Assembly (NCBI GenBank): GCA_046331705.1
Contig: JAXLQJ010000044.1
Span: 1 to 64,000 of the forward strand
Direction of reading: 5' to 3'
Length of the DNA: 64,000 nucleotides
DNA from: a bacterium
GTDB lineage: Bacteria; JADJOY01
The notes under the pieces are model-generated. The model made no database searches. It had not been told where the DNA came from and saw only the letters and a list, made by a program, of their open reading frames with translations. Within the stretch, counting starts at the first letter, position 1, and every line of letters starts with the position of its first letter. Positions 30,490 through 64,000 of the stretch are shown here, one piece after another. Made by a program: the position numbers and the translations under genes.

Positions 30490-30533
30490 CCGCGAACGGT
30501 GCCCCGCGAACGGTGCCCCCCGCGGACGGTGCC
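30490..30533 (+). repeat. Tandem 14-nt repeat CCGCG(A/G)ACGGTGCC x3 at the left end of the Y1 element
   Basis: Units at 30490-30503, 30504-30517 and 30520-30533; the last continues into ACCC. Confidence 0.9.
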
Positions 30534-30728
30534 ACCCTACTTGAAGCGCTCTCGACCGCGCTCGGAGGTGGCAGGAAATGCGTAGCCGACCGATCGGCGC
30601 CGCGCTGCTCGCCCACCCCACTTCGGCGCATCCACCGTGCGCCCCTGGGGGCGCACACGCTGCGCCCCGTTGAACGCAGCGCGACCAGCTTCAAGGCCAC
30701 AAACCAAAGGATCCCGTGACCCGAGGCA

Positions 30729-30744
30729 TGGCACGGCACATGCC
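30729..30744 (+). promoter_or_regulatory. Possible sigma-54 promoter of the Y1 transposase
   Basis: TGGCACGGCACATGCC fits GG-N10-GC; the predicted start lies a few nt before ATG 30759. Confidence 0.45.
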
Positions 30745-30758
30745 ACAGCGCTTGCGCC

Positions 30759-31685
30759 ATGCCCCGACCCGTCCGCTGGCTACGACCCCACACGCGCTGG
30801 TTCGTCACATCCCGTGCGCTCGAGGCGCGCTTCCTATTGGTTCCGAGCGACGCCCTCAACCAGCGCGTGGGCTTCTGGCTCGGCCGCGCCTTGAAGCGCT
30901 TCCCCGGAATTCGAGCGCACGCGCTCTACGTGGCCTCGAACCACGTCCACGCCTGCGTCACCGATCGCGACGGATCGCTCAGCGCCTTCTTCGGCTACTT
31001 CCTCGGCCAGCTCGCCAAGGACGTCAATGCGCTCCGTGAGCGAGGAGGGCCCGTATTCCATCGGCGATTCTCGGCAGAGCCGATCCTCGACGACGAAGCG
31101 GTCGCCGAGCGCATCGCGTACCTGGTCTGCAACCCGATCGAGGATCGCTTACTCGAAGACTGGCGCGAATGGCCCGGCGTCATGCTCTGGACGCAATCCA
31201 GCCAGCCGGAGACGTTCCGGTTCCGGCGGCTGGATACCACCGGCTACGCGATCGCCAAGCGAAGCGCCGAACGCAACGGCAAGAAGGTCAAGCAGGGCGA
31301 GTTCTTCGAGGAAGAGACGGTCACGATCTCCCCCTTCGACGCTTGCGAGAACGGTGTCCTCGATCCGAAGGTGATCGTTCGCGCGGTGAAGCATCGGGCA
31401 CAAGCGCTGCGGGAGCAGCACCGCGGCAAGGTCTATCTCGGCGTGCGGAAAATCCTTCGCCAGCAAGCGAACGACGCTCCGAAGAGCTCCGACCAGTCGC
31501 CGCGACCGCTCTGCCACACGACGCGACTCGAGCTCTGGCAGGAGTTCAAGGAGTTGTGGAAGAACCTCGTCTCGACCTACCGCGAGATCTCCGCGCGTTT
31601 CCGTCAGGGTGAGCTCAGGATCCGATTCCCTGCGTTCACCTTTCCACCCTGGCGGCCGCTGATCGTTCCCTTGCCGCGCTGCTGA
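30759..31685 (+). CDS. Y1 (HUH) tyrosine transposase, RAYT/IS200-like
   Basis: MPRPVR N-terminus, SNHVH (HUH), VFHRRF, YLVCNP (catalytic Tyr), WREWPG. Confidence 0.9.
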   Translation: MPRPVRWLRPHTRWFVTSRALEARFLLVPSDALNQRVGFWLGRALKRFPGIRAHALYVASNHVHACVTDRDGSLSAFFGYFLGQLAKDVNALRERGGPVFHRRFSAEPILDDEAVAERIAYLVCNPIEDRLLEDWREWPGVMLWTQSSQPETFRFRRLDTTGYAIAKRSAERNGKKVKQGEFFEEETVTISPFDACENGVLDPKVIVRAVKHRAQALREQHRGKVYLGVRKILRQQANDAPKSSDQSPRPLCHTTRLELWQEFKELWKNLVSTYREISARFRQGELRIRFPAFTFPPWRPLIVPLPRC

Positions 31686-31895
31686 CGACGAGGTCGATAC
31701 CGGCACCGTCGAGCACGTCCGCGAGGCCGTGAACGGACAAGGCGCGTCCCGATTGCGTGCCCGCGCGCATGCCGCCTTGCCTCTTCTCTTGGCGATTCGC
31801 CGCGCATCCGCGCGAGCGCCTTCACGCACGAGGTCTGCGCCTCAATCGCGATCGTCGGTCGCCGGCACCCCCACCCTGTGATCAAGAAGGTGGGT

Positions 31896-31927
31896 GGCAC
31901 CTCGCCCGGGGGGCACCTCGCCCGGGG
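31896..31927 (-). repeat. Tandem 16-nt repeat GGCACCTCGCCCGGGG x2 at the right end of the Y1 element
   Basis: Exact units at 31896-31911 and 31912-31927. Confidence 0.9.
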
Positions 31928-33440: not shown

Positions 33441-36400
33441 TCAATGGAAATCGCGGCTCGCGACCCGCGTGGGCGCCCGCAGCGAGCGCGGCGACCAGAG
33501 CTCCTCGGCGACGATGTGCACCACGCGATCTTCCACTTGCAGCGCGCCGGTCACGCCGAGGAACGACGCGGTCCGCACCAAGGTGGCGTGGGCATCGAAG
33601 ATGCGCTTCCAGATCACCAGGTTGGCGAAACCGGTCTCGTCTTCGAGGGTCATGAACGTGACGCCGGAGGCGGTACCGGGATGCTGGCGGCAGATGACGA
33701 TGCCCGCATAGCTCACGCGCTGGCCGCCCGCCATGGCGGCGATCTCGCGTGCCGTGGGTAGGCCACGCGCGCGGAGCGTGGCACGCAACGGCTCCAGCGG
33801 ATGCGACCGCGAGCTGTGGCTGCTGGCACCGTAGTCCCAGGCGACCTGCTCGAGCGGCGTGAGCGGCGCGAAGCTCGCGCGCGCGCCACGACGATTGGGC
33901 GTGGCGAGCGGCAACGACGCGCGACGGGTGCGCACCAGCTCGCGCACCGCCCACAGGTCCTCACGGCGCGATCCACCGAGGCTCTCGAAGGCGCCTGCTT
34001 CGACGAGGGCGGTGAGCAGACGAAGGTCGAGCGCGGTGCGTTGCACGAAGTCCTCGAGCGAGGTGAACGGAGCGTCGCCGCGGACCGCGACGATGCGCTC
34101 GGCGGCATCGGCGCGAAAGCCTTTCACGTAGCGAAAGCCCATCCGCACCGCGAATGCCACCTGCGGGCGGAAGGCTCGCCCCTCCCGCAACCGATCTCCA
34201 CGCTCGGCTTCCATCTCTCCCGGTGCCGGCGGCGCCGCACGAGCGAAGCGAGTGACGTGGGGGTGGGGCCCCGTCGAGACCGCGCTCTCGACGGGGCGGG
34301 GGTCTGGAACCCGCGTGCGCGTTGCGCACGCTCCCCGCGGAAACAACGCACAATCCCAATCGCTGCTGCAGACGTCGATGGGGAGGATCGCGACGCCGTG
34401 GCGTTTGGCGTCGTCGACGATGGTGGCGGGCATGTAGAAGCCCATCGGCTGCGCGTTGAGCAGGCTGCACGTGAACTCGGCCGGATGATGGCAGCGCAGA
34501 TACGACGTGGCGTAAGCGATGAGCGCGAAGCTCGCGGCGTGGCTCTCCGGGAAGCCGTACTCGCCGAAGCCCAGGATCTGCTTGAAGATCCGCTCCGCGA
34601 ACTCGGCGGCGATGCCCTTGGCCTGCATCCGCGTGAGCAACCGCTCGCGATGCCCTTCCATGCGACCGCTGCGCCGCCAGGCCGCCATGTCGCGGCGCAA
34701 CTGATCCGCCTCGCCAGGCGTGTAGTCGGCGGCCACCACCGCGAGCCGCATGACCTGCTCCTGGAAGAGCGGCACGCCGAGCGTCTTCTCGAGCACCGGC
34801 ACCAGACACGGGTGCGGATAGGCCACCGCTTCCTCGCCTTTGCGGCGGCGCAGATACGGATGGACCATGCCGCCGGTGATCGGTCCCGGCCGCACGATGC
34901 TCACCTCCACCACCAGGTCGTAGAAGTTCTTGGGCTCGAGGCGCGGCAACATCGCCATCTGCGCCCGGCTCTCGATCTGGAACACGCCGACGGTGTCGGC
35001 GCGCTGGATCATCGCGTAGGTGTCGGGATCGTCGGCGGGAATGGTGGCGAGCGAAAGCGTGATGCCCCGGTGCCGGTACAGCAGATCGAAGCAGCGGTGC
35101 AGGTGTGTCAGCGCGCCCAAGCCGAGCAGATCGAGCTTGAAGAGCCCGAGCGCCTCGACGTCGTCCTTGTCCCACTGGATGACGGTGCGCGCCGCCATGG
35201 TGGCGTTCTCGATCGGCACCAGATCGTGGACCGGCTCGTGCCCGAGCAGGAACCCGCCCGGATGGATCGAGAGGTGGCGTGGGAAATCGAGCACCTCCCC
35301 CACCAGCTCGACGAGCCGGACGTGAAGCGGCGCCGTGGGATCGAAGCCGGCACGCTCGAGCGCGCGCACGTCGATCGTGTCCCAGTGCGAGCAGACCTTG
35401 GCCAGACGATCGAGCGCCGTCTCCGGCAAACCGAGCGCCTTGCCCACGTCGCGCACCGCCGAGCGCGCGCGGTAGCGGATGACGTTCGCCACCATGGCGG
35501 CATGGCTGCGGCCGTATTTCTCGTAGACGTGCTGGATCACCTCCTCGCGGCGCTCGTGCTCGATGTCGAGATCGATGTCGGGCGGCTCGGCCCGCTCCAC
35601 CGACAGGAAGCGCTCGAAGAGCAACCCCATCTGCACGGGATCGACGGCGGTGATGCCGAGGCAATAGCAGACCGCCGAGTTGGCGGCCGAGCCGCGCCCC
35701 TGGCAGAGGATGCCGCGCGCCCTGCAGAACTCGACGATCTCCCACATCGTGAGGAAGTAGCCGCCGTAATCGAGGAGCTCGATGACCCGAAGCTCCTGTT
35801 CGAGCTGGGCGCGCATGGGCGCGCTCACGGCGCCGCCCTCGCGCCGTGCCGCACCCTCGAACACGAGCCGGCGCAGCCACTCGCCGGTGGTGGTGCCGTC
35901 GGGCAACCGCTCCGACGGATAGCGATAGCGGATCTCGGCGAGCGAGAACGTGCAGCGCGCCGTGACCTCGTCGATGCGCGCCAGCGCCGCGGGATCGTCG
36001 GCGAAGAGTTGCTCGAAGACCGTGGGCGTCACGAGGCCGTGCTCGGCGTTGGGCTTGAGGCGATTGCCCGCGGTGGTGAGCGTCACGTGGTGACGGATGC
36101 ACGTGAGCACGTCCTGCAGCGGGCGGCGCGCGGGCGTGTGGTAGAGCACCTCGATGGCGGCGACCCGCAGCAAGCCGTAGCGCTCCGCACGCGCACGCAG
36201 CCGCGCCTCCTCGCGCACTTCCGAGGCGCGGCGATGGCGCGCGACCATCGCGTAGAGCGCGTCGCCGAACGCCTCCCCGAGCGGCCCCGCCACGGAGTCG
36301 AGCGCCGCGGGATCGTCCTCGCCCGCGGCACCCGTGAGCAGGCTGCGATCGCCGCCCCACAGCGCCAGCAACCCGCCGGCGTGGGCGCAGATCTCCTCCC

Positions 36401-36728
36401 AAGCGACGGTGCACGTGCCTTTCTCGTGACGCAGCCGGCCGCGCGTGACGAGGCGGCAGAGGTTCGCGTAACCGGCGCGATCGCGCACCAGAAGCACGAT
36501 CGTGGAGCCGTCCTCCACCGTGATCTCGGAGCCGATCACGAGCGGCACGCCGCGCTCGCGCGCCTTCGTGTGGGCGCGCACCACACCCGCCACGCCGTCG
36601 CGATCGGTGATCGCGAGAGCGGGAAGCCCCAGGCGCTGCGCTTCCTCGACCAGCTCGTCCGGATGGCTCGCTCCTTCGAGGAACGAGTAGTTGCTCTTGC
36701 ACCACAGCGCCGCACGCGCGCGCGTCAC
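33441..36728 (-). CDS. dnaE2: Error-prone DNA polymerase DnaE2 (ImuC)
   Basis: [33 protein letters not shown]-terminal SRDFH; GTG start overlaps the imuB stop. Confidence 0.97.
34218..34344 (+). repeat. Multi-hairpin palindromic (REP/MITE-like) element, copy A, in frame inside dnaE2
   Basis: The first 58 nt match 62547-62604 at 53/58 positions; the downstream GACGGGGCGGGGG.CTGGAAC and CCCCG.GGAAAC are also shared. Confidence 0.88.
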
Positions 36729-38221
36729 GACACTTCCCCGTGGAGGAAGAAACGGCGCCGGCGACGATCGTAGAAGACCCAGAGCAATGCCCCGCGCGTG
36801 GTGAGCGCGAACAGGTACTCGCGATGGATCTCGCGGATCCACCACCCACCCGAGAGGATGTGCGGACCGACCAGCTTGGTGACCGCGCCGTGCGACGGGC
36901 CGCGCACCAGCCAGCCGTCGTCGCGAAGCGCGCGCGGAACGGCGGGCAGCGGGACGGGCTTGGCGTAGACGTGACGCACCAGTGGACGCGGCAGCCGCGA
37001 GACCGCGATCGCCCGCGGCGCGCGCACGGAGTCGATCGGCTCCCACGCGAAGCTCGCTTCCGGCAGGTGGCCCGCGCGCAGCACCGCGCGCACCACCGCT
37101 TGCTCACCGATCTCGGCACGCAAGCGAGCGAGGGCGCGATTGGCCGCGGCGAGATCGCGCCGGGGCTGGATCGTGAAGAGCCCGAGCTGCTCCTTGGTGG
37201 CGGGGACGCCGTCCGCTTCCAGCTCGATCTCGGCGACGCCGGCGGCGAGCGTCATCGATTCGAGGCGCAGGCGCACCAGATCGAGGATCTCGGTGACCTC
37301 GAGGGTGGGGACCGCCGGCCGGAGCTCCGCCGTGTGCGTGCCCTGGCGCCGATCGAGCACCAAGCGCACGTGGAGCGCGGCCAGCACCCAAGCCCGGCGC
37401 ACGAGCGCCGCGAGCAGCGGGTGCAGCATGCGCTTCACCCCGAACAGGAGCCGGGTGTGATCGCTCTCGGGGTCGTCGAGGACGAGCCGCTCGATCAACG
37501 GCTCGACGTACGCGATGGGTTGTAACGGCGGCGCGAGCTCGCCCGTGGCGAGCCGGTGCAAGCGATGGGCGCGCTCGTCGAAACGCGCGAGCAGATCTCC
37601 CGCTGGCAGCGACAGAAACCCCGCGACGGTGGTGATGCCGAGCTTGGCGAGCAGGTCGCGTAGCTCGGGATCGAGATCGAGCAGCCGGAGCGCCACCTCG
37701 CCGGCCGCCGCGCGCTCTTCCACCTCGCTCGCGAACACCTGGTTCTCGCGCCGCGAACGCGCCACGGCGTAGGTACCGAAGCGCGAGAACCCGACCACCA
37801 CCACCGCCCGGAGCGCCAGCGTGCGCGAGAGCTCTTCGCGTAGCGCTCGTGCCCACCGTTCGAGCGAGGGATGGAGGCGCTCGAGCCCCGTGGCGCCGAG
37901 CCAGAAGACGCCTTCCTCGGGCGCGGTCTCGACGTCGGGCGTGAACCGCCACAGGCATTCGAGGATGCGCGTGCGCGCGTCCCGGACCTCGTCGTTCGAG
38001 ATCTCGCCGGCACGCAGCCCCGGCACCAGCGCCAGCCCCACGGCATAACGCTGCCCGGGCAGGATGCCCCCGCTTCGCGCCGCGCGGTTCACCCACAGGA
38101 TCTCGCCCTGGGGCTTGTCCTCGCTGACCACCGCGGCCGGCAGCTCCGCCCAGCCTGGATGCCTTCGCAGCAGGAGCTGGAGCGGAAACGCGGCGACGCT
38201 AACGCAGGCCACTCGGCCCAC
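36725..38221 (-). CDS. imuB: ImuB, Y-family polymerase-like protein
   Basis: [39 protein letters not shown]...REY; AGGAG SD; located between imuA and dnaE2. Confidence 0.93.
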
Positions 38222-38837
38222 GACACTCCTCGACGTGCGACCACGTCGGCCCGCGGCGCTTGTCCTTGAGAATGCCGAGCGTGCAACGAAACCGGTCGAC
38301 CGCCGTCCATTCCCGTGATCCTTGGGCACGCAGCGAGACCAGCGAGCCGAGCGAGGGCGCCCGCTCGTCCTTCTCGGTCAGGCACACCAGCGCCGTGTGG
38401 TGGCGCTGCGCGAGGCCGAGCAGCCGCGATTGCAGCGGCGACGCGATCACCGCCTCCTTGCCGAGGTGCAAGACCACCAGCGCGAACGCGCCCGAGCGCG
38501 CGAGCCGCTCTGCGGCGGTCGCCACCGAGACACGGCGGCTCGCGACCGGCACCCGCACCACCACCAGCGATTCGAGATCGACTCCGCTCTCGGCGACGTC
38601 GGGCGGATAAAACGAGCTCTCGTCGCTCGTCACCCAGCCGGCGAGCTCGCCCTGGCGCTGCGCGTCCAGCACCAGTCCCACGGCGAGCGTCAGCGCGGCG
38701 CTCGCTTCGGCACCGGCGATCTCCACCAGCCGCCCCGCCAGCTCCTCCACCTCGAAGCGCGCGGGACGCCCGCGCGACGGAAACGCCTGATCGCCAAAGC
38801 GAACCGAGGAAGGCAAGGATGCGAGCTGCAACGCCAT
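38199..38837 (-). CDS. imuA: ImuA, RecA-like protein
   Basis: GRLVEIAG...LTLA, FYPPD...GVDLESLVVV, RSGAFALVVL. Confidence 0.88.
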   Translation of the reverse strand: MALQLASLPSSVRFGDQAFPSRGRPARFEVEELAGRLVEIAGAEASAALTLAVGLVLDAQRQGELAGWVTSDESSFYPPDVAESGVDLESLVVVRVPVASRRVSVATAAERLARSGAFALVVLHLGKEAVIASPLQSRLLGLAQRHHTALVCLTEKDERAPSLGSLVSLRAQGSREWTAVDRFRCTLGILKDKRRGPTWSHVEECRGPSGLR

Positions 38838-40032: not shown

Positions 40033-41352
40033 ATGGTATCCGCCCGCCCACGGCCTGAGCTCGAGATCACGAAGGTTGCCACGAATCTCGACGAGCTCTG
40101 GGACAACTTCGACCCCGCCCTCGCCGTCGATCCTGAGAGCGAGTTCTACGTCCACCGTACGGACGAGGACGAGCTTGGGCGCCTTTGCTTCGAGCTGGTT
40201 CGGGTCAAGCCGGACGCCATCTTTCACGGCTTCCTGTGCGGTCACGGCGGCAGCGGCAAGAGCACGGAGCTGCGACGCCTCGCGCGGAATCCAAAAGTCC
40301 GTCAGCACTTCCTTCCGATCCACGTATCCATCCGGACTTTCGGCAAGGACACGATCGATCTCACCCACGACGCACTCATGGTCGAGATCGGCCTCGCACT
40401 GCGGGAAGCCACCGAGAAAAACGGCCTCGAGTCGACGTTCGCAGGGGAGCTCGACGAGTGGGGCACAACGACGGTGAAAGGCTTTCTCAAGGAGGAAGCC
40501 GTCGCCGCCGAGGCCGGCGCCAAGGGAAACGCGTGGCTCGCCTACTTCAAGGCAAGCCTGCGCACCCGGCGAACGTGGAACGTGGAGCAGCAGCAACGCT
40601 TCGAGCCACGTGTCGTCGAGCTCGTCGCCATCCTCAACCGAATGGCGCAAGAGCTGGAGAACCGCACGAAACGCCGCGTGCTCGTGATCGTGGATGATCT
40701 CGAGAAGGGTGATTCGGAAGGCCACCGGGCCATGCACGCGCGCCTTTTCTGCGACCACTACGAAACGCTCGTCGGTCCCCGTTTCGCCACGATCTACACC
40801 CTACCCGTCTACTTCCGTGCCCTGCCCGACAACCGCATTCCCGGGGATCAGATCTACTCGTTCGCCGCGGCACGTCTCTACCCGCCAGAGCGCAAGGACG
40901 AGGACCATCCCGCGCTGGATCGCGCGCACCCGGGCTACCAGCTCATGCACGGCTTCGCGAAGGCCCGGGTCGGCGATGTCGACCGTTACTTCGAGGCCGA
41001 CGTGCTCGACGAGCTACTGCTCGTGGGCGGCGGGCTGTTCCGAGAGACGGCTCGCGCCATCCGGCTCGCAGCCCAACGGGCCATCATGCGGGCTGCCGAC
41101 CGCATCTCCCTCGATGACGCGAAGCACGCGGCGGAGCAGATCAAGAAGGACTATCAGCCCATCGTGCGCGGCGACGCGGTGCGAGTGTTGAAAGCGGTGT
41201 TGGATTCGCGCTACGGCTGGGTCGAGGACGTCGAGCCCTACCTTCAGTGGCGGGCCGTGGTCGAGTACGAAAACGGTTCGATGTGGCTCGACGTCCGCTC
41301 GGTCTTGAAGGGGTACGTGCGCACTCTTGACGGTGCAGCCGCTCGAAGCTGA
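40033..41352 (+). CDS. P-loop ATPase (STAND/AAA-like)
   Basis: Walker A GHGGSGKST, Walker B VLVIVDDLEK, GGLFRE; TATAAT at 40021-40026 lies 6 nt before ATG 40033. Confidence 0.88.
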   Translation: MVSARPRPELEITKVATNLDELWDNFDPALAVDPESEFYVHRTDEDELGRLCFELVRVKPDAIFHGFLCGHGGSGKSTELRRLARNPKVRQHFLPIHVSIRTFGKDTIDLTHDALMVEIGLALREATEKNGLESTFAGELDEWGTTTVKGFLKEEAVAAEAGAKGNAWLAYFKASLRTRRTWNVEQQQRFEPRVVELVAILNRMAQELENRTKRRVLVIVDDLEKGDSEGHRAMHARLFCDHYETLVGPRFATIYTLPVYFRALPDNRIPGDQIYSFAAARLYPPERKDEDHPALDRAHPGYQLMHGFAKARVGDVDRYFEADVLDELLLVGGGLFRETARAIRLAAQRAIMRAADRISLDDAKHAAEQIKKDYQPIVRGDAVRVLKAVLDSRYGWVEDVEPYLQWRAVVEYENGSMWLDVRSVLKGYVRTLDGAAARS

Positions 41353-43952
41353 AGGCACCTCCCCCGAGCGGGAGGCCGCCCGAGAGATCGCGCTGCTCGC
41401 GAAGCGCGCGGTGGCGAACGATCGTCCGCTTTTCTTGCTCGCCTTCTGCCAAAACGAGAGCGATGTCCGCGCCGTGCTCACGAGCCTGACGGCGACGGCG
41501 CGCGTCGCGGGCGTTGCGATCGACGTCATCAGTCCCGACGACGATGACATCGGCCGCGCCTACGACCAACTCGCACGAAGCTCCGAAGCGGGTCGCCTCG
41601 CCGTGCTCCGAGAGCTTCCGCGAGACGCCGCGGACCCGACGAGGCCGTCCGCCTCCTTCCTCAGCTACCTAAACCTGCACCGGGACCGAATCGCCTCGGA
41701 TCGGTTGCGCTTCCTGCTGATCCTCAGGACGCGTGAGGCGGAGACGTTCATCGCCCGCGCGCCAGACCTCTGGGACTTTCGCCACGGCACGTATTGGATC
41801 GAACGCGAGGCCTCCGTGCTCCTCGGCACGCGCTTCCTCGAACCGATCGCACGGATGGAGGCGGGCGCAGCCTCTCCACCCACGGATGCGGCGCGCGCCG
41901 AGGTTCGAAAGCGCCTGGAACGCGTCACGAAACTGCTCACCGAGACGGAAGAGGCCACTGCGCGCGCCGCCCTCCGGCTCGATCTCGCGCAGTGGCTCGC
42001 GCCCCGCGGCTTCGCCCTGGAAGCAGCGGCGGCGTGTCGCGAAGCGCTCGAGGATCTTCCCGACGAGGAGGTGGTCCTGCGGGCTCGCATCGAGGTGCTC
42101 CTCGGGGACCTTCACGTCGCACTCGGAAACGGCACCGAGGCCAAACGGCTCTTCGAACGATCCCTCGAGATCGCCGAGCGACTCGCCAACCAAGAACCGG
42201 GACGCGCCGACTTCCAACGAGACCTCTCCGTCTCACTCAACAAGCTCGGGGACCTTCACGTCGCACTCGGAAACGGCACCGAGGCCAAACGGCTCTTCGA
42301 ACGATCCCTCGAGATCCGAGAGCGACTCGCCAACCAAGAACCGGGACGCGCCGACTTCCAACGAGACCTCTCGATCTCCTTCGACCGGCTCGGGGACCTT
42401 CACGTCGCACTCGGAAACGGCACCGAGGCCAAACGGCTCTTCGAACGATCCCTCGAGATCCGAGAGCGACTCGCCAACCAAGAACCGGGACGCGCCGACT
42501 TCCAACGAGACCTCTCCGTCTCACTCAACAAGCTCGGGGACCTTCACGTCGCACTCGGAAACGGCACCGAGGCCAAACGGCTCTTCGAACGATCCCTCGA
42601 GATCCGAGAGCGACTCGCCAACCAAGAACCGGGACGCGCCGACTTCCAACGAGACCTCTCGATCTCCTTCGAGCGGCTCGGGGACCTTCACGTCGCACTC
42701 GGAAACGGCACCGAGGCCAAACGGCTCTTCGAACGATCCCTCGAGATCCGAGAGCGACTCGCCAACCAAGAACCGGGACGCGCCGACTTCCAACGAGACC
42801 TCTCGATCTCCTTCGAGCGGCTCGGGGACCTTCACGTCGCACTCGGAAACGGCACCGAGGCCAAACGGCTCTTCGAACGATCCCTCGAGATCGCCGAGCG
42901 ACTCGCCAACCAAGAACCGGGACGCGCCGACTTCCAACGAGACCTCTCCGTCTCACTCAACCAGCTCGGGGACCTTCGTCGCACTCGGACGGCACCGAGG
43001 CCAAACGGCTCTTCCGATCCCTCAGATCGCCGAGCGACTCGCCAACCAAGAAGGACGCGCCGACTCAACGAGACGTCTCCTCAACCACCGGGGACCTTAC
43101 GTCGCACTCGGAAACGGCACCGAGGCCAAACGGCTCTTCGAACGATCCCTCGAGATCCGAGAGCGACTCGCCAACCAAGAACCGGGACGCGCCGACTTCC
43201 AACGAGACCTCTCCGTCTCACTCAACAAGCTCGGGGACCTTCACGTCGCACTCGGAAACGGCACCGAGGCCAAACGGCTCTTCGAACGATCCCTCGAGAT
43301 CGCCGAGCGACTCGCCAACCAAGAACCGGGACGCGCCGACTTCCAACGAGACCTCTCCGATCTCACTCGAGCGGCTCGGGGACCTTCACGTCGCACTCGG
43401 AAACGGCACCGAGGCCAAACGGCTCTTCGAACGATCCCTCGAGATCCGGAGCGACTCGCCAACCAAGAACCGGGACGCGCCGACTTCCAACGAGACCTCT
43501 CGATCTCACTCGAGCGGCTCGGGGACCTTCACGTCGCACTCGGAAACGGCACCGAGGCCAAACGGCTCTTCGAACGATCCCTCGAGATCGCCGAGCGACT
43601 CGCCAACCAAGAACCGGGACGCGCCGACTTCCAACGAGACCTTGCCGTGTCATACGAGCGAATCGGCAACATCACCGAGGCGCCGGAAGCGGAACACTGG
43701 CTCGACCGCGCCGTGGCAATTCGGCGGCGTCTACATGCGCTCGACGCGGCGAGCGCGGTGCTCCAGAGGGAGCTTGCCATCGCGCTCGACCTCCGCGGCA
43801 GGACGTGTCACCGTCCCGAGGATCGGGGCGAAGCCCGCTTCCTGCTTCGAGCACTGAACGATCGAGGCGCGCTCGAGGTTCGCTATCGCGCGCTGCTCGA
43901 GAAGCTCGAGAGCCTGGCCCTCCCGACGCCCGGCGCTTCGGCCCAGCCGTGA
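41327..43952 (+). CDS. TPR-repeat protein with N-terminal degenerate ATPase-like domain; frameshifted within the repeats as given
   Basis: LNLHRD...APDLWDFR N-terminal domain; 48-aa TPR-like units; the C-terminal cap is read in the 41733-43952 frame. Confidence 0.8.
42101..43661 (+). repeat. 11 tandem ~144-bp coding repeats (48-aa TPR-like unit)
   Basis: Unit starts at 42101, 42245, 42389, 42533, 42677, 42821, 42965, ~43088, 43230, 43375, 43518. Units 7-8 lose 23 nt, unit 9 is +1 and unit 10 is -1. Confidence 0.95.
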
Positions 43953-44004
43953 CCCCGCAGCGCGAGTGAGGTCGGCCACGAGGTCCGCGTGCCGCTCCGG
44001 CGTC

Positions 44005-59567: not shown

Positions 59568-60716
59568 TCACCCGCTCGCGAGGTCTCCGTCGCAACGAGC
59601 GACGAGGCCGAGCGCCTCGGCGAGCCCGGGGTTGCTGCCGTCGAGGCGCCAGAGGTAGCCGTCCAGCACGTAATGCGTCGCCTGTGGCAGCGCGAGCAGC
59701 GGTACGACGATCGCCTGCCACGCCGATAGATCGAGCGCGGGAAACGGAAAGAGCCGCGGATGATCGCGCCACACCGCGCCGTCCCAGAGCCATTCCTCGG
59801 CGAAGGCGAGTGCCACGAGTCCCAGGGCGAAGAGCGCGAAGCGGCGCGGGGCGAACACGGCGGCGAGCATCCGGCTCAGCGAGGAGCCGCCCGCGGGTTT
59901 GACGGAGCTCGCCCAGCGGATCACGCCGTAGCGGTGCGAGATCGCCATGTACGGGATGCCGTGAACGAGCACGTTCGCGGCGGTGAAGGCGAAATCGCTC
60001 TCCCAGAGCACGATTCCCGCCCACCACGTCGCGGCGGTGGTGACGACCAGCAGGATCTTCCCCGTGAACCACGGCTGACCCGCGACGCGGCGCTGGATCT
60101 GGCGCACGGCGAACGCCAGCAGCACGACGATCCAGACGCCGCGGGCGATCGCCGCGGCCGTCGACGGCACCCCCGCGACGAAGTCTCCGTCGATCAGCCA
60201 CGCGAACGGTCGCGGCAGCCGCGCGTGCCACGAGATCAGCGGATAACCGGTCGCCACGTAGATTGCCGCCTCGTCGACGAACCGATCGACGCGTGAACGA
60301 TCTCCGGCACGATGCCGGTAGAGCCGCATCCACCCGAGCTGCTGCTTCACGAAGTGGAATACCGCCACGTACGCGAGCACCCGCCAGAACGCGAGCGGCG
60401 AGAGCGAGTAGAGAAAGACGCCCACCACCCAGGCCGCGATCGGCACCGCCACGTAGAGCCCGAGCCGGCGCTCGAGCTCGGCACCGTCGAGGTAGACGCG
60501 CAACGTGGTGCCGTGGACGTGCGCCACGTCCACCGCCACCACCAGCGCCAGCCACGCCCAGGTGGGCGTCGAGCCGTCCGGCTCGGCGAGCCGCCCGGCG
60601 AGCGCGCCCAGCACCAGCGCCACGATCGCCGGCAACACCAGGAACGCCGCGTCGTACGCCGGATCGACGAGCCAAACGCTCGGCAGCGGCCGCGCCGCGC
60701 GGCTCGCGAGGCTCAT
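59568..60716 (-). CDS. Conserved membrane protein of the speE-like operon
   Basis: VDVAHVHGT, FHFVKQQLG, HGIPY, PQATHYVLDGYLW; ATGA-coupled to the oxidoreductase. Confidence 0.82.
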   Translation of the reverse strand: MSLASRAARPLPSVWLVDPAYDAAFLVLPAIVALVLGALAGRLAEPDGSTPTWAWLALVVAVDVAHVHGTTLRVYLDGAELERRLGLYVAVPIAAWVVGVFLYSLSPLAFWRVLAYVAVFHFVKQQLGWMRLYRHRAGDRSRVDRFVDEAAIYVATGYPLISWHARLPRPFAWLIDGDFVAGVPSTAAAIARGVWIVVLLAFAVRQIQRRVAGQPWFTGKILLVVTTAATWWAGIVLWESDFAFTAANVLVHGIPYMAISHRYGVIRWASSVKPAGGSSLSRMLAAVFAPRRFALFALGLVALAFAEEWLWDGAVWRDHPRLFPFPALDLSAWQAIVVPLLALPQATHYVLDGYLWRLDGSNPGLAEALGLVARCDGDLASG

Positions 60717-62479
60717 CCCAGCGCCTCGAATGGCACGCGCAGCGCCGCGAGCACCTCCTCGGCAGCGCGCACGCCGTGGTAGTGGGCTTCCTCGAAGAGC
60801 GGCAATCCCGAGAGGTCGGTATGCGCGAAATGCACCGCGCCGCGCGGCTCCGCGGCGCGTCGGCGCGCGGCGCCGAACACGAAGCCGGGCACGGGGCGCA
60901 CCATGGCGTGGCCCCAGCGCCACGCCTCGATGCGCGTGACGCACGCGTCGAGGTCTGGATGGCCACGCCTCAGGTCGGCGAGGATCGCGCTCGCCGCGTC
61001 GACGAAGCTCGTTTCCAGCAGGCGCTTTCGGGCGAGCGCCGGATCGGCGTCCGTGAGCGGCAGGTAGTAGGTCCAGACCGTCGGGCCGTAGCGGGTGGGC
61101 GCGCGGCGCGCGCAGCCGGTGGTCGCCGTCGAAGCGCGTCCCGCGGGATCGCCGCTCAGCTGCGCGAGCACGCTCGGAGAGCAGCGACCTTCGTCGGTCT
61201 GGTGTGTCGCGTCCACGTAGCCCAGGCCGGCGCTGCCGTAGAGCACGTTGTCCCACGCTTGCGGGAATCCGCGCGAGCGCGGGTGTCGCGCCAGCGAGAG
61301 GTTCGCCACGAGCCAGGGGCTGACCTGGAACTCGCGCGCGTCGCGGATCAGCTCGTCGTCGGCGAGCAGACGCGCGGCGAACATCCTGGGTAACGCGACG
61401 ATCACGCGGTCGGCCTCGAGCGCCTCCGCGCGATCCATCGCCGGGTCGTAGGTCCAGACCTCGACCGGCGCACCGACGGCGGCGGGATCACCGCCTCTGG
61501 CAGCGGGTCTGGCGCGGATGCGCGTGACCGCGACGCCCGCGCGCAGCCGCCCGCCGCCGCCGGCGGCGCGCTGCGCCAGGTGCGCCACCAAGCGGCCGTT
61601 GCCCTCCGGCCAGGTGAGGAACGGCTGCGTGTCGCCGTGCTCCCAGCGGGACGCGAAGTAGTGGATTCCCGCCCACGCGCTGGTGGTCTCGAGTGTCGAG
61701 CCGAAATCGTCGCGGCAGCCGTACTCGACGAGCCAGCGCAGGCGCTTGGAGCGAAAGGCGCGCTCGTCCAACCACTCGGCCATCGAGATGCGGTCGAGCG
61801 CGGTCACGTCCGCGTCGTCGGAACCGTGCGCCATCGGCACGGCGAACGCACGCCTCCCGCGACCATCGCGAAGCATCGCCCAGCGCGCGATCTCGGCGTC
61901 GAAGCGATCCCGCTCCGCGAGCTCCTCGGGCCTCGCCCCGGGCCACGGAAAGAGCCCCTCGTACCAGCGATCGGCCACGAAGACACGCTCCTCCGGCGCG
62001 CGACAGAGCTGCCCCTCGTCCGCGACGAACGCACCGCTTGCCGGATCGCGCAGGCCGGCGCCGGCCTCCACCAGGAGCTCGATCATCGCTTTCGCGTGAG
62101 GCAACGGCGCCGGCACGTAATGGGCGCCCCACGGGAACGCGCTGATCGCGTTCTCCCCCGGGCGCGCGGTCCCACCCAGAATCGAATCGAGCTCGACGAG
62201 CTCGAAATCGTGGAAGCCGGCGCGCGCCAGCCGCCATGCCGCCGTCAGACCCGCGACACCGCCGCCCACGATGAGCACCGGCACGCGTCGGCGCGCGCTC
62301 GGTGGCGGCGCGAAGCCATCGCGCAAGCGATGCCCGAGCTCGTGAGGCGCGCCGACGAAATCGCCTTCGATCGCCCGCGGCCGCGGCTCGCGACACGCCG
62401 AGAGCGCCGCCGGCAACCCGACCAACGCGGCGACGGCCTCCCGCCGCGAGATCCGCGCCCCCAGGCAATCACGCGTCAC
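60713..62479 (-). CDS. FAD-dependent amine-oxidase-like oxidoreductase with Tat-like signal
   Basis: SRREAV; GGGVAGL; PWGAHYVP; RWGHAM; HTDLSGLPLFEEA. Confidence 0.9.
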   Translation of the reverse strand: MTRDCLGARISRREAVAALVGLPAALSACREPRPRAIEGDFVGAPHELGHRLRDGFAPPPSARRRVPVLIVGGGVAGLTAAWRLARAGFHDFELVELDSILGGTARPGENAISAFPWGAHYVPAPLPHAKAMIELLVEAGAGLRDPASGAFVADEGQLCRAPEERVFVADRWYEGLFPWPGARPEELAERDRFDAEIARWAMLRDGRGRRAFAVPMAHGSDDADVTALDRISMAEWLDERAFRSKRLRWLVEYGCRDDFGSTLETTSAWAGIHYFASRWEHGDTQPFLTWPEGNGRLVAHLAQRAAGGGGRLRAGVAVTRIRARPAARGGDPAAVGAPVEVWTYDPAMDRAEALEADRVIVALPRMFAARLLADDELIRDAREFQVSPWLVANLSLARHPRSRGFPQAWDNVLYGSAGLGYVDATHQTDEGRCSPSVLAQLSGDPAGRASTATTGCARRAPTRYGPTVWTYYLPLTDADPALARKRLLETSFVDAASAILADLRRGHPDLDACVTRIEAWRWGHAMVRPVPGFVFGAARRRAAEPRGAVHFAHTDLSGLPLFEEAHYHGVRAAEEVLAALRVPFEALG

Positions 62480-62546
62480 GCGTCACCTCGCTCGCGTGAG
62501 TGGCCAGCCGATCCGCGCAATTCGGTCTCCGCGCGCCGTCGATCCA

Positions 62547-62654
62547 TCCCGGTGCCGGCGGCACCACACGAGCGAAGCGAGTGACTCAGGGGTGGGGCCC
62601 CGTCGCGGCTTCGCCGTGACGGGGCGGGGGGCTGGAACAGCCCCCCGAGGAAAC
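62547..62654 (+). repeat. Multi-hairpin palindromic (REP/MITE-like) element, copy B, intergenic
   Basis: Hairpins GGTGCC-GGC-GGCACC, CCCCGTCGCGGC-TTC-GCCGTGACGGGG and CGGGGGGCTG-GAA-CAGCCCCCCG; homologous to 34218-34344. Confidence 0.88.
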
Positions 62655-62687
62655 CTCGGACTAGGCTGCCGTCGCTCCGACGGAAGC

Positions 62688-64000
62688 CTAGTCCCACCGG
62701 CGCCACTCCTCGTCGTAGTACTGGACGAGGATCTGGTTGTCGAGCCGGTTCACCTCGCCCTCGAGAGGCGCCAGGTCGGGACCGAACACGAAGAGCGTGG
62801 GCAAGAGCTGGTCGTCGAGAAAGCGCAGATCGGGGAGCGTGCGGCGCGGCGCCTCGAAGGGCGCGCGCTTCGCGAGCACGAATCCCCACTCGCCGAACGA
62901 CGGCACGGGCACGTGGTAGGGCCGCACGGTGAACCCCGCCTTCTCGATGGTGCGCGCGATGCACCAGTACGACTTCCGCGCGAACAACGGCGAGGTGGCC
63001 TGCACCGCGATGGCGCCGTCCTCGGCGACGTGCGGCGCGAGCAGCCGGTAGAAGCGCGTGGTGTAGAGCTTGCCCAGCGAGAAGTTGTTGGGATCGGGAA
63101 AATCGACGATCACCACGTCGTAGCGCGCATCCGCCGGAGCCTCGTCGAGCCATGCCATCGCATCGGCGTTCACGACCCGCACCCGCGGGTTCTCGAGCGA
63201 GGCGCCGTTGAGGTCGCGCACCAGCGGCAACCGTGCAACCACCTCCGTCATCGCGGGATCGAGATCGACCAGCGTCACGTGCTCCACCGTTGGGTGCTTG
63301 AGGATCTCGCGCACGGCGAGCCCGTCGCCGCCGCCCAACACCAGCACGTTGCGACCGCGCGCCGCCGCCGCGAACGCTGGATGCACGAGCCCCTCGTGGT
63401 AGCGGTACTCGTCGACGCTCGAGAACTGGAGGTTCCCGTCCAGGAAGAGCGCGAACGTGTCGCGATTCTTGGTCAGCACGATGCGTTGATACGGCGTCTG
63501 CTTCGACCACACGATCGGATCGGCGTAGTGCTCCTCCTCGGCCAGGCTCGTGAGCCGGTCCGCGGACACGAACGCCGCCATCAACGCCACCAGCACCGCC
63601 AGACACTGCACCCGCAGCCACGACACGGCGCGGATCTCGGAAGCGAGCAGCCACGTCGTCCAGAGCGCGGCGAGCGCGTTCAACGCACCGAACCCCAGCG
63701 AGCTTCGAACCAGGCCGAGCCGCGGGACGAGCAGGATCGGGAAGAGCAGCGAGGCGATCAGGGCGCCCAGGTAGTCGAAGGCGAGCACCTGTGCCACGAC
63801 CTCCTTGAACGTCAGCCGGTCGCGCAAGATGCGAAGCAGCAGCGGGATCTCGAGGCCGACCAGCACCCCGATCACGACCACCACGCCGTAGAGCAGCGGA
63901 CGGAACGCGGCGAAGCGGCCGAACGCGAAGAAGAGCAGCGGCGCCGAGAAGCCGCCCACCACCGCCACCGCCAGCTCCACGTCCACGAATCGTCGCGCCA
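62688..64000 (-). CDS. speE: Membrane-fused polyamine aminopropyltransferase (spermidine synthase-like); 5' end outside the window
   Basis: TM N-terminus; QTPYQRI, LFLDGNLQF, LVLGGGDG, VDLD, VDFPDP, VPSFGEWGF. Confidence 0.93.
   Translation of the reverse strand, partial: ARRFVDVELAVAVVGGFSAPLLFFAFGRFAAFRPLLYGVVVVIGVLVGLEIPLLLRILRDRLTFKEVVAQVLAFDYLGALIASLLFPILLVPRLGLVRSSLGFGALNALAALWTTWLLASEIRAVSWLRVQCLAVLVALMAAFVSADRLTSLAEEEHYADPIVWSKQTPYQRIVLTKNRDTFALFLDGNLQFSSVDEYRYHEGLVHPAFAAAARGRNVLVLGGGDGLAVREILKHPTVEHVTLVDLDPAMTEVVARLPLVRDLNGASLENPRVRVVNADAMAWLDEAPADARYDVVIVDFPDPNNFSLGKLYTTRFYRLLAPHVAEDGAIAVQATSPLFARKSYWCIARTIEKAGFTVRPYHVPVPSFGEWGFVLAKRAPFEAPRRTLPDLRFLDDQLLPTLFVFGPDLAPLEGEVNRLDNQILVQYYDEEWRRWD

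Follow-up and report, generated by a model that had tools for sequence, protein, structure and literature searches.

The analysed window is a stretch of 64,000 nucleotides (nt) from contig JAXLQJ010000044.1 (positions 1 to 64,000, forward strand) of assembly GCA_046331705.1, from a bacterium (GTDB lineage Bacteria; JADJOY01). It contains gene dnaE2, which codes for an error-prone DNA polymerase (ImuC) and harbors, within its reading frame, a hairpin-rich palindromic repeat (copy A); a second copy (copy B) occupies an intergenic position. Both belong to a repeat family found in several related genomes, which probably consists of lineage-specific interspersed repeats similar to repetitive extragenic palindromes (REPs) and bacterial interspersed mosaic elements (BIMEs), the dnaE2 copy being an in-frame passenger comparable to Rickettsia palindromic elements (RPEs). 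The host gene and the modules of the two copies are listed below; the plus strand of the window is the top strand of the element, H1 to H4 are its four hairpins and L numbers designate loci retrieved in the census reported further on.

33441..36728, minus strand: dnaE2 (error-prone DNA polymerase, ImuC), 1095 amino acids (aa), host of copy A, identified as an open reading frame (ORF) with its Pfam domains
34152..34343, minus strand: 64 extra DnaE2 codons (FPRG...RPQVAF) between WDCAL and AVRMG, delimited by orthologue alignment
34193..34221, plus strand: copy A 5' module, type I (gaTCTCCACGCTCGGCTTCCATCTCTCC), common to copy B, L033, L035, L037, L057, L088, L091 and L107
34222..34236, plus strand: copy A hairpin H1 (GGTGCC-GGC-GGCGCC), from folds and covariation
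34238..34256, plus strand: copy A 19-mer CACGAGCGAAGCGAGTGAC, identical in 43 copies, which were found by this same string
34238-34254, plus strand: copy A hairpin H2 (CAC-GA-GC-GAA-GC-GA-GTG), its shape recovered by RNAalifold
34257..34268, plus strand: copy A G-tract GTGGGGGTGGGG, near-invariant alignment columns
34269..34296, plus strand: copy A hairpin H3 (CCCCGTCGAGA-CCGCGC-TCTCGACGGGG), with covarying inner pairs
34298..34336, plus strand: copy A hairpin H4 with nested hairpin GCGTGCGC-GTT-GCGCACGC (34313-34331); the orthologous copy of L057 has a simple H4
34337..34344, plus strand: copy A tail GCGGAAAC, immediately adjacent to the C-A-L codons of DnaE2
62524..62654, plus strand: copy B, whole element (104.8 bits with a covariance model)
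62524-62545, 62551-62565 and 62567-62585, plus strand: copy B 5' module, H1 and 19-mer, respectively
62598-62624, 62626-62646 and 62647-62654, plus strand: copy B H3, H4 and tail, respectively

Homology between copies A and B had been proposed in an initial annotation of this DNA and was confirmed here. Both were 77 % identical over 102 ungapped nt in a repeat search, could be aligned with MAFFT, and displayed 54 identities out of 59 in blastn (E 3.6e-17), plus a further 20 out of 21. The stem-preserving difference in hairpin H3 and the additional CGTGCGC-GTT-GCGCACG hairpin of copy A, which had also been reported, were recovered from the sequence as well as from the folds. Homology from the proposed starts (34218 in A and 62547 in B) was likewise correct but the element itself begins further 5', at approximately 34193 in A and 62524 in B, because the conserved 5' module TCTCCACGC..CGATCC is common to other copies. 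With a start near 34193 rather than 34218, most of the protein insert corresponds to the element. A covariance model (CM) built from 16 other copies, leaving out copy A, detected copy B with an E value of 2.9e-19 and copy A with 1.4e-11, while the next-best match in the window scored E 0.065 with filters off; A (34191-34344) and B (62524-62654) are thus the only two copies of the window. Folded as RNA, copy B gave z-scores of -6.1 (top strand) and -4.3 (bottom strand), those of copy A being modest (-2.2 and -2.1).

The size of the family was estimated by scanning one genome per GTDB species for the exact 19-mer CACGAGCGAAGCGAGTGAC common to A and B, which yielded 122 matches in 116 loci. The whole A/B architecture was carried by 41 of these matches, located in 36 loci from four metagenome-assembled genome (MAG) assemblies (JADJOY01, labelled 'Deltaproteobacteria bacterium', with 15, CAYVDO01 with 10, CAYMQR01 with 12 and CAYUSL01 with 4). 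Model R1, a CM of the family, extended this to 57 copies at E<=0.01 in 37 sources (the 36 loci and the window), including 15 copies without the exact 19-mer. Copies could be grouped in 38 clusters, 16 of which hold two to three copies. In the assemblies with NODE-named contigs (CAYVDO01, CAYMQR01 and CAYUSL01), 14 of the 23 loci are found no further than ~350 nt from the end of a contig, the usual mark of an assembly-breaking repeat, so that copies are probably undercounted. At least five related, uncultured bacteria of high GC content (~70 % GC) harbor the family in several copies, which are often arranged in tandem. The initial annotation had suspected an uncharacterised repeat family and called for a CM census, regarding as contrary evidence that only two copies might exist and show no covariation; the 57 copies bear out the first idea and many of the further ones do covary.

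Elements are ~105-170 nt long and comprise four hairpins. Their module order on the top strand is 5' module, H1, H2, G-tract, H3, H4 and a tail GAGRAAAC. About three interchangeable types of 5' module were distinguished. H1 is a stem of 7 base pairs (bp) with an RGC loop, whereas H3 is variable in sequence and length. H2, a GCGNAGC mini-hairpin that hardly varies, has tandem G.A mismatches and CAC/GTG on either side; it is followed by ACTYG and then by GGGGTGGG. Two forms of H4 were seen, GGGGGGCTGGAACAGCCCCCC and one in which a GCGYGCGC hairpin is nested.

No Rfam family matched at gathering threshold, neither in the window nor in 20 loci, and the region around copy A (34100-34420) returned at E<=10 a sole match to NEAT1_3 (E 8.2), which offers nothing usable. 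A blastn search of a plasmid collection with the element gave no match. String searches of the literature for H2 and its complement returned only unrelated primer or eukaryote matches, and a search combining 'Myxococcota' with REP returned nothing related. Within the scope of these searches, the repeat family is undescribed, the kind of in-frame insertion event displayed by its dnaE2 copy being already known.

The folded structure was read off the sequences by eye and tested on a plain MAFFT alignment of 25 copies. There, 87.4 % of cells paired, as compared to 77.2 % in shuffles, and the covariation score was 0.272 against 0.129 for shuffled alignments, neither value being reached in 500 shuffles; controls with slid partners scored 0.045-0.083. 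Changes on both sides of the stem affected five of the seven pairs of H1 and six of the seven inner pairs of H3 among these 25 copies, and seven out of seven for either hairpin among all 57. RNAalifold, to which no structure was supplied, recovered H1, the shape of H2, part of H3 and H4. In the alignment of the 57 copies, which was fitted to the model by the CM, 92.7 % of cells paired and 27 out of 31 pairs changed on both sides. The retention of pairing where copies A and B differ, as initially described, consequently extends to many further copies. Over all stems, G:T pairs of the top strand outnumbered A:C pairs (22 versus 8), a mild signal of strand asymmetry.

H2 contrasts with the other hairpins by its sequence conservation. 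It was invariant in the 43 copies that were found by their own sequence; among the 15 copies detected by CM only, changes were modest (GCGTAGC, GCCAGGC and GCAAAGC loops), and two copies lacked H2. The C-GA-G/C-GA-G context is one that favours tandem sheared G.A pairs. Its stabilising features are found only on the top strand, the complement displaying U/T.C mismatches. GCGNAGC corresponds to a mini-hairpin DNA motif described as extraordinarily stable and nuclease-resistant, and as present at single-stranded DNA (ssDNA) replication and priming sites (PMC13037366).

The host gene was identified by its Pfam set (PHP, DNA_pol3_alpha, finger, HHH_6 and OB domains). Its product is identical to protein P0001, with homologues annotated as error-prone DNA polymerase. 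An ORF with an IMS domain (imuB-like, 36725-38329) overlaps dnaE2 and lies directly upstream of it, so that the Pol III alpha domain set and the Y-family-like gene together constitute an imuB-dnaE2 cassette. Mechanical ORF calling extended dnaE2 to 1201 aa (33441-37119), in comparison to the 1095 aa of P0001, and a comparable ORF (L066:237-2132) ran through two repeat copies. Such calls run through elements and overlap real genes because stop codons are lacking on the bottom strand of the element as well as in the GC-rich genome.

The initial annotation had noticed about 60 extra residues in DnaE2 between SDWDCAL and AVRMG; 64 were counted here. An alignment of 23 orthologues displayed a short loop of ~8-12 residues in 19 of them, the repeat insert in two (the window protein P0001, and P0002) and unrelated insertions in the remaining two (P0006 and P0030). 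As judged from this alignment, the dnaE2 copy is an insertion and no ancient loop. About 50 of the 64 codons would derive from the element, the remaining ~12 resembling the original loop. According to a sequence alignment with Thermus Pol III alpha (2HPI/3E0D), which places WDC at residue 880 and VRMG at residue 887, the insert fills a six-residue turn just before a helix-hairpin-helix (HhH) motif, and the HMMER match is split there. The same turn appeared as a hot spot of insertions, occupied in L057, P0030 and P0006, with a nearby duplication in P0109. The P0030 insertion consists of a duplication of the preceding 40 residues and of a Pro/Ser/Arg-rich stretch, that of P0006 of 24 to 28 residues unrelated to the repeat.

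Locus L057 (CAYVDO01), which encodes P0002, harbors the same element at the same place in dnaE2, which was thus inserted once, before the two lineages split. Between both copies, four of the 114 aligned columns from H1 to the H4 loop differ, while the rest of the gene is ~89 % identical. Codons of the insert (58 aligned) display 12 nonsynonymous and three synonymous differences, as compared to 56 and 140, respectively, in the 713 codons outside it. At the DNA level, the insert is thus conserved, or homogenised with other copies; its peptide is not under purifying selection. The window copy has acquired 18 extra nt as a nested H4 hairpin starting right after ..CTGGAAC, a variant also encountered in L015, L081, L113 and L115, and L057 displays 69 extra hairpin-rich nt on its 5' side (~1545-1615, minus strand). 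Subsequent indels of the dnaE2 copy comprised entire hairpin modules, 18 and 69 nt in length. These lengths are divisible by three, which is demanded by translation through the insert and not by splicing. On the bottom strand of 41 full-length copies, three frames are open in 18 and two in 17; given this scarcity of stop codons and a frame that was kept open, the insert would be read as ~50 extra residues.

According to a different explanation, the DnaE2 segment would be an old, functional and lineage-specific loop, or would be removed before the mature protein as an intron, an intein or by translational bypass. That the loop tolerates other insertions (P0006 and P0030, beside the duplication near it in P0109) and that the frame has stayed open in two lineages could be cited in its favour. 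It is nevertheless highly improbable and already largely refuted by the short loop of 19 out of 23 orthologues, by the nature of the segment, a complete copy of a repeat that recurs at 37 other sites without homology to this one, and by the 12 to 3 ratio of nonsynonymous to synonymous differing codons. Furthermore, no Rfam intron or ribozyme was matched, and indels in multiples of three fit translation whereas splicing has no need of them.

Comparison of both dnaE2 copies also bears on the origin of the perfect stems, since stem-preserving changes could result from palindrome-templated correction, that is intrastrand template switching or gene conversion between arms or copies, instead of selection on the fold. 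Stems were mostly perfect, with 618 of 720 scored cells forming Watson-Crick pairs, even where the sequences of different copies are unrelated. H4 of the dnaE2 copy switched after the lineage split to a variant seen elsewhere, which suggests copy-to-copy conversion, and nucleotide identity between H1 and the H4 loop is higher than in the gene around the element. Correction of this kind would however leave unexplained the near-invariant unpaired G-tract, the non-Watson-Crick positions of H2, the excess of G:T over A:C pairs and the fixed module order and polarity, and we consider it doubtful as the source of these changes, though not far-fetched.

The genomic placement of the family is exemplified by copy B, the surroundings of which comprise the following features.

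60713..62479, minus strand: amine-oxidase-like gene (Pfam Amino_oxidase, NAD_binding_8), its start facing the 5' end of copy B
62658..62694, plus strand: extra hairpin beside copy B, the right arm of which holds the stop codon (62688-62690) of the minus-strand gene
62688..63986, minus strand: spermidine-synthase-like gene (Pfam Spermine_synth, E 3.1e-36), its stop facing the tail of copy B

From this tail to the stop of the spermidine-synthase-like gene there are 36 nt, with the stop-containing hairpin in between. Long, near-perfect hairpins with a stop codon were also observed between tail and upstream gene in L006, L033, L037 and L074; in these as in copy B, the outer right arm includes the stop codon (CTAG...CTAG or CTGAC...GTCAG), while the left arm repeats, inverted, the final bases of the coding sequence.

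Family copies displayed a strict polarity. When ORFs were called from the GC content of third codon positions (GC3), 19 of 22 clusters had as tail-side neighbour an opposite-strand gene whose stop codon points towards the tail. After flanking ORFs had been checked with Pfam (L047, L048 and L069 being corrected), this applied to 20 of 23 clusters (two-sided binomial p ~5e-4). Where the neighbour had a Pfam domain, 10 out of 11 agreed, the exception being L035, which lies upstream of zwf. Neighbours confirmed in this way were MacB/FtsX, TIG, AAA ATPase, MopE, Trypsin_2, molybdopterin oxidoreductase, a Cys/Met PLP enzyme, NuoC, a BadF/BcrA ATPase and, for copy B, the spermidine-synthase-like gene. 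The gap to the stop codon was 0-3 nt in L030, L040, L067, L069, L105 and L113. Neighbours on the 5' side were mixed (11 antisense and eight sense), so that copies lie between co-directional or convergent genes and never between divergent ones in this sample. Copy B obeys the polarity rule and the dnaE2 copy has the same polarity as the rest. Some copies are found inside operons (nuoC-nuoD, macB-macB); as L074 is located between nuoC and nuoD, its complement must be part of the operon transcript. In the sense of the mRNA, the complement of the element directly follows the stop codon, also within operons.

The usual site of the family is accordingly just after stop codons, in antisense orientation, and not inside genes. 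The idea that the family adds peptide to host proteins, put forward in the initial annotation, could not be maintained as a general property: beyond the shared dnaE2 event, only one of 38 clusters (L047) touches coding sequence, at a C-terminus. There, the ORF of the BadF/BcrA-type ATPase reads 13 codons into the element (L047:1435-1478, ..ILALE|SSEGRFQAPTRRE*) until a TGA stop codon is reached within the loop of H3, which represents a second, independent case of an element supplying coding sequence. When the insert peptide was sought within longer proteins (5.8 billion searched), only the two DnaE2 proteins were found among 169 candidates, a blank that is weak evidence. Polarity with respect to replication was considered as well, but GC skew, mostly negative on the plus strand between 8 and 64 kb, was too weak and confounded by gene strand.

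Such a placement raises the possibility of a cis-acting 3'-end RNA element, the transcribed complement of which would stabilise mRNA, end transcription or damp translation as Escherichia coli REPs do, copies arising by recombination. This is a serious possibility, albeit one that we hold to be less likely than its negation, and as a statement on function it is compatible with a REP/BIME-like repeat family. The 20 out of 23 clusters just after the stop of the antisense gene, several of them at 0-8 nt and some inside operons, are in line with it, as is the ability of both strands to fold (z -4.3 for the bottom strand of copy B). REPs are described as lying 1-20 nt from ORF ends, those less than 16 nt from a stop lowering translation (PMC12306157), which parallels the distances found here. 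On the other hand, neither terminator-like sites (a GC-rich hairpin followed by a T/U run, sought on both strands of 62300-62900, 0 found) nor a promoter-like site were detected around copy B. The stabilising G.A and GNA features of H2, together with the 22 to 8 excess of G:T over A:C, are on the strand that is not the mRNA. A function in RNA only would also leave unexplained why tandem and nested junctions share one position.

These junctions were examined in arrays of copies. The unit start GTGCTCGAGCGC of type II directly follows GGGGGGCTKGAAN, that is the left arm and loop of H4, in eight of nine occurrences. In type II arrays (L040:1426-1732, L089, L031, L067 and L015), only the last unit displays the H4 right arm and the tail. 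Nested-hairpin variants begin at the same position, after GGAAC. Junctions fixed at a hairpin loop, hairpin features specific to one strand, absence of terminal inverted repeats and target-site duplications, and a fixed polarity are what is expected of single-strand nicking by an HUH enzyme.

From these features, a mode of movement can be proposed for the preferred REP/BIME-like reading. The family would behave as a non-autonomous, structure-defined repeat living at gene 3' ends, like REP/BIME. It may be rearranged or propagated through a single-stranded intermediate, because the stabilising features of H2 are present on one strand only. Breakage and joining would take place at one position of the H4 loop (..CTGGAAC^), as for a nick by an HUH-type nuclease, because tandem units and nested hairpin modules both begin there.

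A candidate for such an enzyme is encoded in the window.

30759..31685, plus strand: diverged Y1 (HUH) transposase-like gene, 308 aa, 2.5 kb from copy A, a candidate mobiliser only
30502..31927, no strand assigned: Y1 unit with its own 41-nt inverted-repeat arms (30502-30542 and 31887-31927), which contain tandem 16-mers CCCCGCGRACGGTGCC, three on the left and two on the right

The family could in this case be the cognate REP of the Y1 gene, or REPIN (a pair of inverted REPs), with the Y1 protein as REP-associated tyrosine transposase (RAYT) nicking the hairpins and spreading them. Several observations are compatible with this relation. The Y1 protein matched NCBIfam REP_Tyr_transpos (E 3.5e-9) and its translation displays motifs NHVHACV and IAYLVCNP (HUH-like and Tyr motifs). 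Twenty homologues were retrieved; one of them bears the name RayT (given by JGI), and PF01797 is present in two. Like REPs, the family is built on hairpins and lies outside genes, and a junction in a hairpin loop suits the biochemistry of HUH enzymes. The relation is nonetheless unlikely. The NCBIfam score (36.7 bits) is below the cut-off of 80, and Pfam gave no match at 1e-3, Y1_Tnp not being reported. REPINs almost always flank their RAYT (PMC5581495), whereas the Y1 gene is flanked by different 16-mer repeats of its own, which occur nowhere else in the window and are absent from all 116 loci. The best match of the family CM near the Y1 gene had an E value of 0.74, and no homologue of Y1 was found by tblastn in any of the 116 loci, hence none within 1.5 kb of any copy. 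As no family copy flanks the Y1 gene and no Y1 homologue lies near copies, the family does not display the arrangement of a REPIN-RAYT system. In addition, one relative MAG harbors two Y1 paralogues (locus tags U0610_30425 and U0610_26810), suggesting an insertion sequence (IS)-like gene rather than a domesticated, single-copy RAYT; the Y1 unit by itself resembles a small IS200/RAYT-like unit. The initial annotation had tentatively linked repeat and Y1 element through a common GGTGCC. This link was lost, since the shared string is a 6-mer in stem H1, which covaries (GGTGCC, GGCGCC, GCGTCGC, GGTCGC and GCGTGCC) and is therefore no feature of the family; a search for the GGTGCC-containing H1 pattern disclosed no connection to Y1 either.

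Among known systems, REP/BIME repeats are close to the family. BIMEs are mosaic and clustered. The present family is mosaic in the same way, with interchangeable 5' modules, variants of H3 and H4, and 16 of 38 clusters in tandem. Like REP/BIME of enterobacteria and pseudomonads, it is multi-copy, extragenic, defined by hairpins and located at gene 3' ends or within operons, near the stop (PMC12306157); its 57 copies, covarying hairpins and 20 of 23 clusters facing a stop agree with this broad definition. Differences reside in the unit, which is composed of four different hairpins in series (~105-170 nt) where a REP is a single palindrome of 20-40 nt or an inverted pair, as well as in the strict polarity to the upstream gene and the conserved GCGNAGC/tandem-GA hairpin. 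No sequence similarity to REP/BIME was found in Rfam or among plasmids. With REPIN-RAYT systems, the family has in common that hairpin repeats are non-autonomous and that a Y1/HUH gene exists in the same genome region, but it lacks adjacency to a RAYT gene and the inverted REP doublet, and displays the fixed order H1-H2-G-tract-H3-H4.

The dnaE2 copy is reminiscent of RPEs, palindromic repeats of ~150 nt found in frame in housekeeping proteins at structurally permissive sites, where they contribute a peptide (PMC10969869, citing Ogata 2000). RPEs are described there as habitually located inside ORFs, with 44 insertions in R. conorii, whereas of the 38 clusters of the present family, one represents an internal event and another a read-in at a C-terminus; the RPE host lineage is unrelated. 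Miniature transposable elements with inverted repeats (MITEs) such as Correia, ERIC and Nezha are likewise short non-coding repeats with many copies, which now and then lie within genes and have open frames (PMC10969869), but possess the terminal inverted repeats that were not observed here and the target-site duplications that were not seen by eye at dnaE2 and copy B. H2 variants GCGAAGC and GCGTAGC correspond to mini-hairpin DNA at ssDNA origins (phage G4 and others; PMC13037366), with the difference that the mini-hairpin is placed here in a chromosomal interspersed repeat. Finally, strand-asymmetric hairpins, lack of terminal inverted repeats and target-site duplications, fixed polarity and a defined hairpin junction are shared with IS200/IS605 elements and with nicking by HUH Rep proteins, whereas the family neither encodes nor adjoins a transposase, its cleavage site and target being deduced from array junctions.

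A number of points weigh against the proposed reading of the family and of its movement. Some tandem junctions (L066, L091 and L107) do not lie in the H4 loop. Terminal inverted repeats exceeded shuffled controls in none of 10 elements; no target duplication beyond 4 nt was seen by eye at the dnaE2 and copy B junctions, the ends of which are uncertain by a few nt; stand-alone H4 hairpins that could serve as targets were not detected outside family copies in the window and loci; and no mobiliser of the family was identified. The strand forming H2 is antisense to the flanking genes, such that the mRNA form would carry the weaker complement of H2. The invariance of H2 is partly circular, 43 copies having been retrieved by that very sequence, and perfect stems could be kept by palindrome-templated repair rather than by selection. 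Strand calls behind the polarity counts rest partly on the GC3 heuristic, which misjudged distance in two clusters and orientation in one. Translation of the insert is deduced from frame conservation only. A contrast of empty and filled sites is available solely at the protein level, for dnaE2, a tblastx comparison of family loci with the window for orthologous empty sites having found only dnaE2 (L057) to be orthologous; active transposition and ancient amplification with recombination are consequently not distinguished.

Outside the family, the 19-mer had a distribution of its own. The remaining exact matches, 81 in 80 loci of 54 assemblies, compare with ~4 expected for uniform base composition and are likewise not random. 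About 55 of them were preceded by [G/C]TG[G/T], according to a tally of the listing. Most are situated in other multi-copy hairpin repeats, 13 loci belonging to the rabbit-gut Clostridia MAG CANREF01 and six to CANQSR01; other hosts comprise several in Bradyrhizobiaceae, Caulobacterales, Bacteroidales and haloarchaea. The form encountered is usually [G/C]TG[G/T]-19mer-GG/TGAGGGG, bracketed by C4/G4 hairpins; examples are L013:1406-1654, L043:1406-1654, L003:1366-1614, L005:1406-1654 and L021:1406-1654. Pfam analysis of 120 flanking ORFs returned ordinary housekeeping genes and no transposase, HUH protein or integrase. Model R1 scored 23-34 bits on the 80 non-family loci, the same as chance matches in genes, and gave no support for homology beyond the 19-mer. 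It is quite improbable, in our estimation, that the 19-mer CACGAGCGAAGCGAGTGAC is a cross-domain module, be it by homology or by convergence on one recognition signal. If it were, it would define a superfamily with a mini-hairpin read on ssDNA by a conserved nicking, priming or repair enzyme, its repeats would be propagated through ssDNA, and the polarity and H4-loop junctions of the present family would be signs of the mechanism.

Three unrelated genomes have the 19-mer directly after or close to a tRNA gene (L070:1419-1519, L014:1348-1519 and L018:1371-1519, with tRNA-Leu, tRNA-Ser and tRNA-Gly); in the two haloarchaea among them, it lay inside a further tRNA-like stretch not called by ARAGORN. 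A tRNA scan of the haloarchaeal and other chance loci found tRNAs nearby and no clear link.

The window also includes a repetitive coding array. Twelve tandem units of ~144 nt (one spacing being 121 nt) between 41327 and 43969 encode TPR_10/TPR_12 repeats, matches to which are found first in residues ~224-458 of ORF 41327-43969 and then in residues 496-650 of ORF 41733-43952. As the matches switch reading frame, the array is either frameshifted, misassembled or a pseudogene.

To the structured repeats already known, the present analysis adds a family with clear limits, hosted by uncultured bacteria of high GC content. For genome annotation, its repeats are of consequence in that they lengthen ORF calls and break short-read assemblies. 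The dnaE2 copy constitutes a natural experiment, in which a repeat is lodged in frame in a polymerase loop beside the DNA-binding HhH motif, its DNA being kept and its peptide drifting while hairpin modules are still gained in multiples of three. For three reasons, namely a super-stable hairpin on one strand, a strict polarity to the upstream stop and junctions concentrated at a single point of a hairpin loop, the family offers a cleaner model than classical REPs of how repeats move and act at gene 3' ends.

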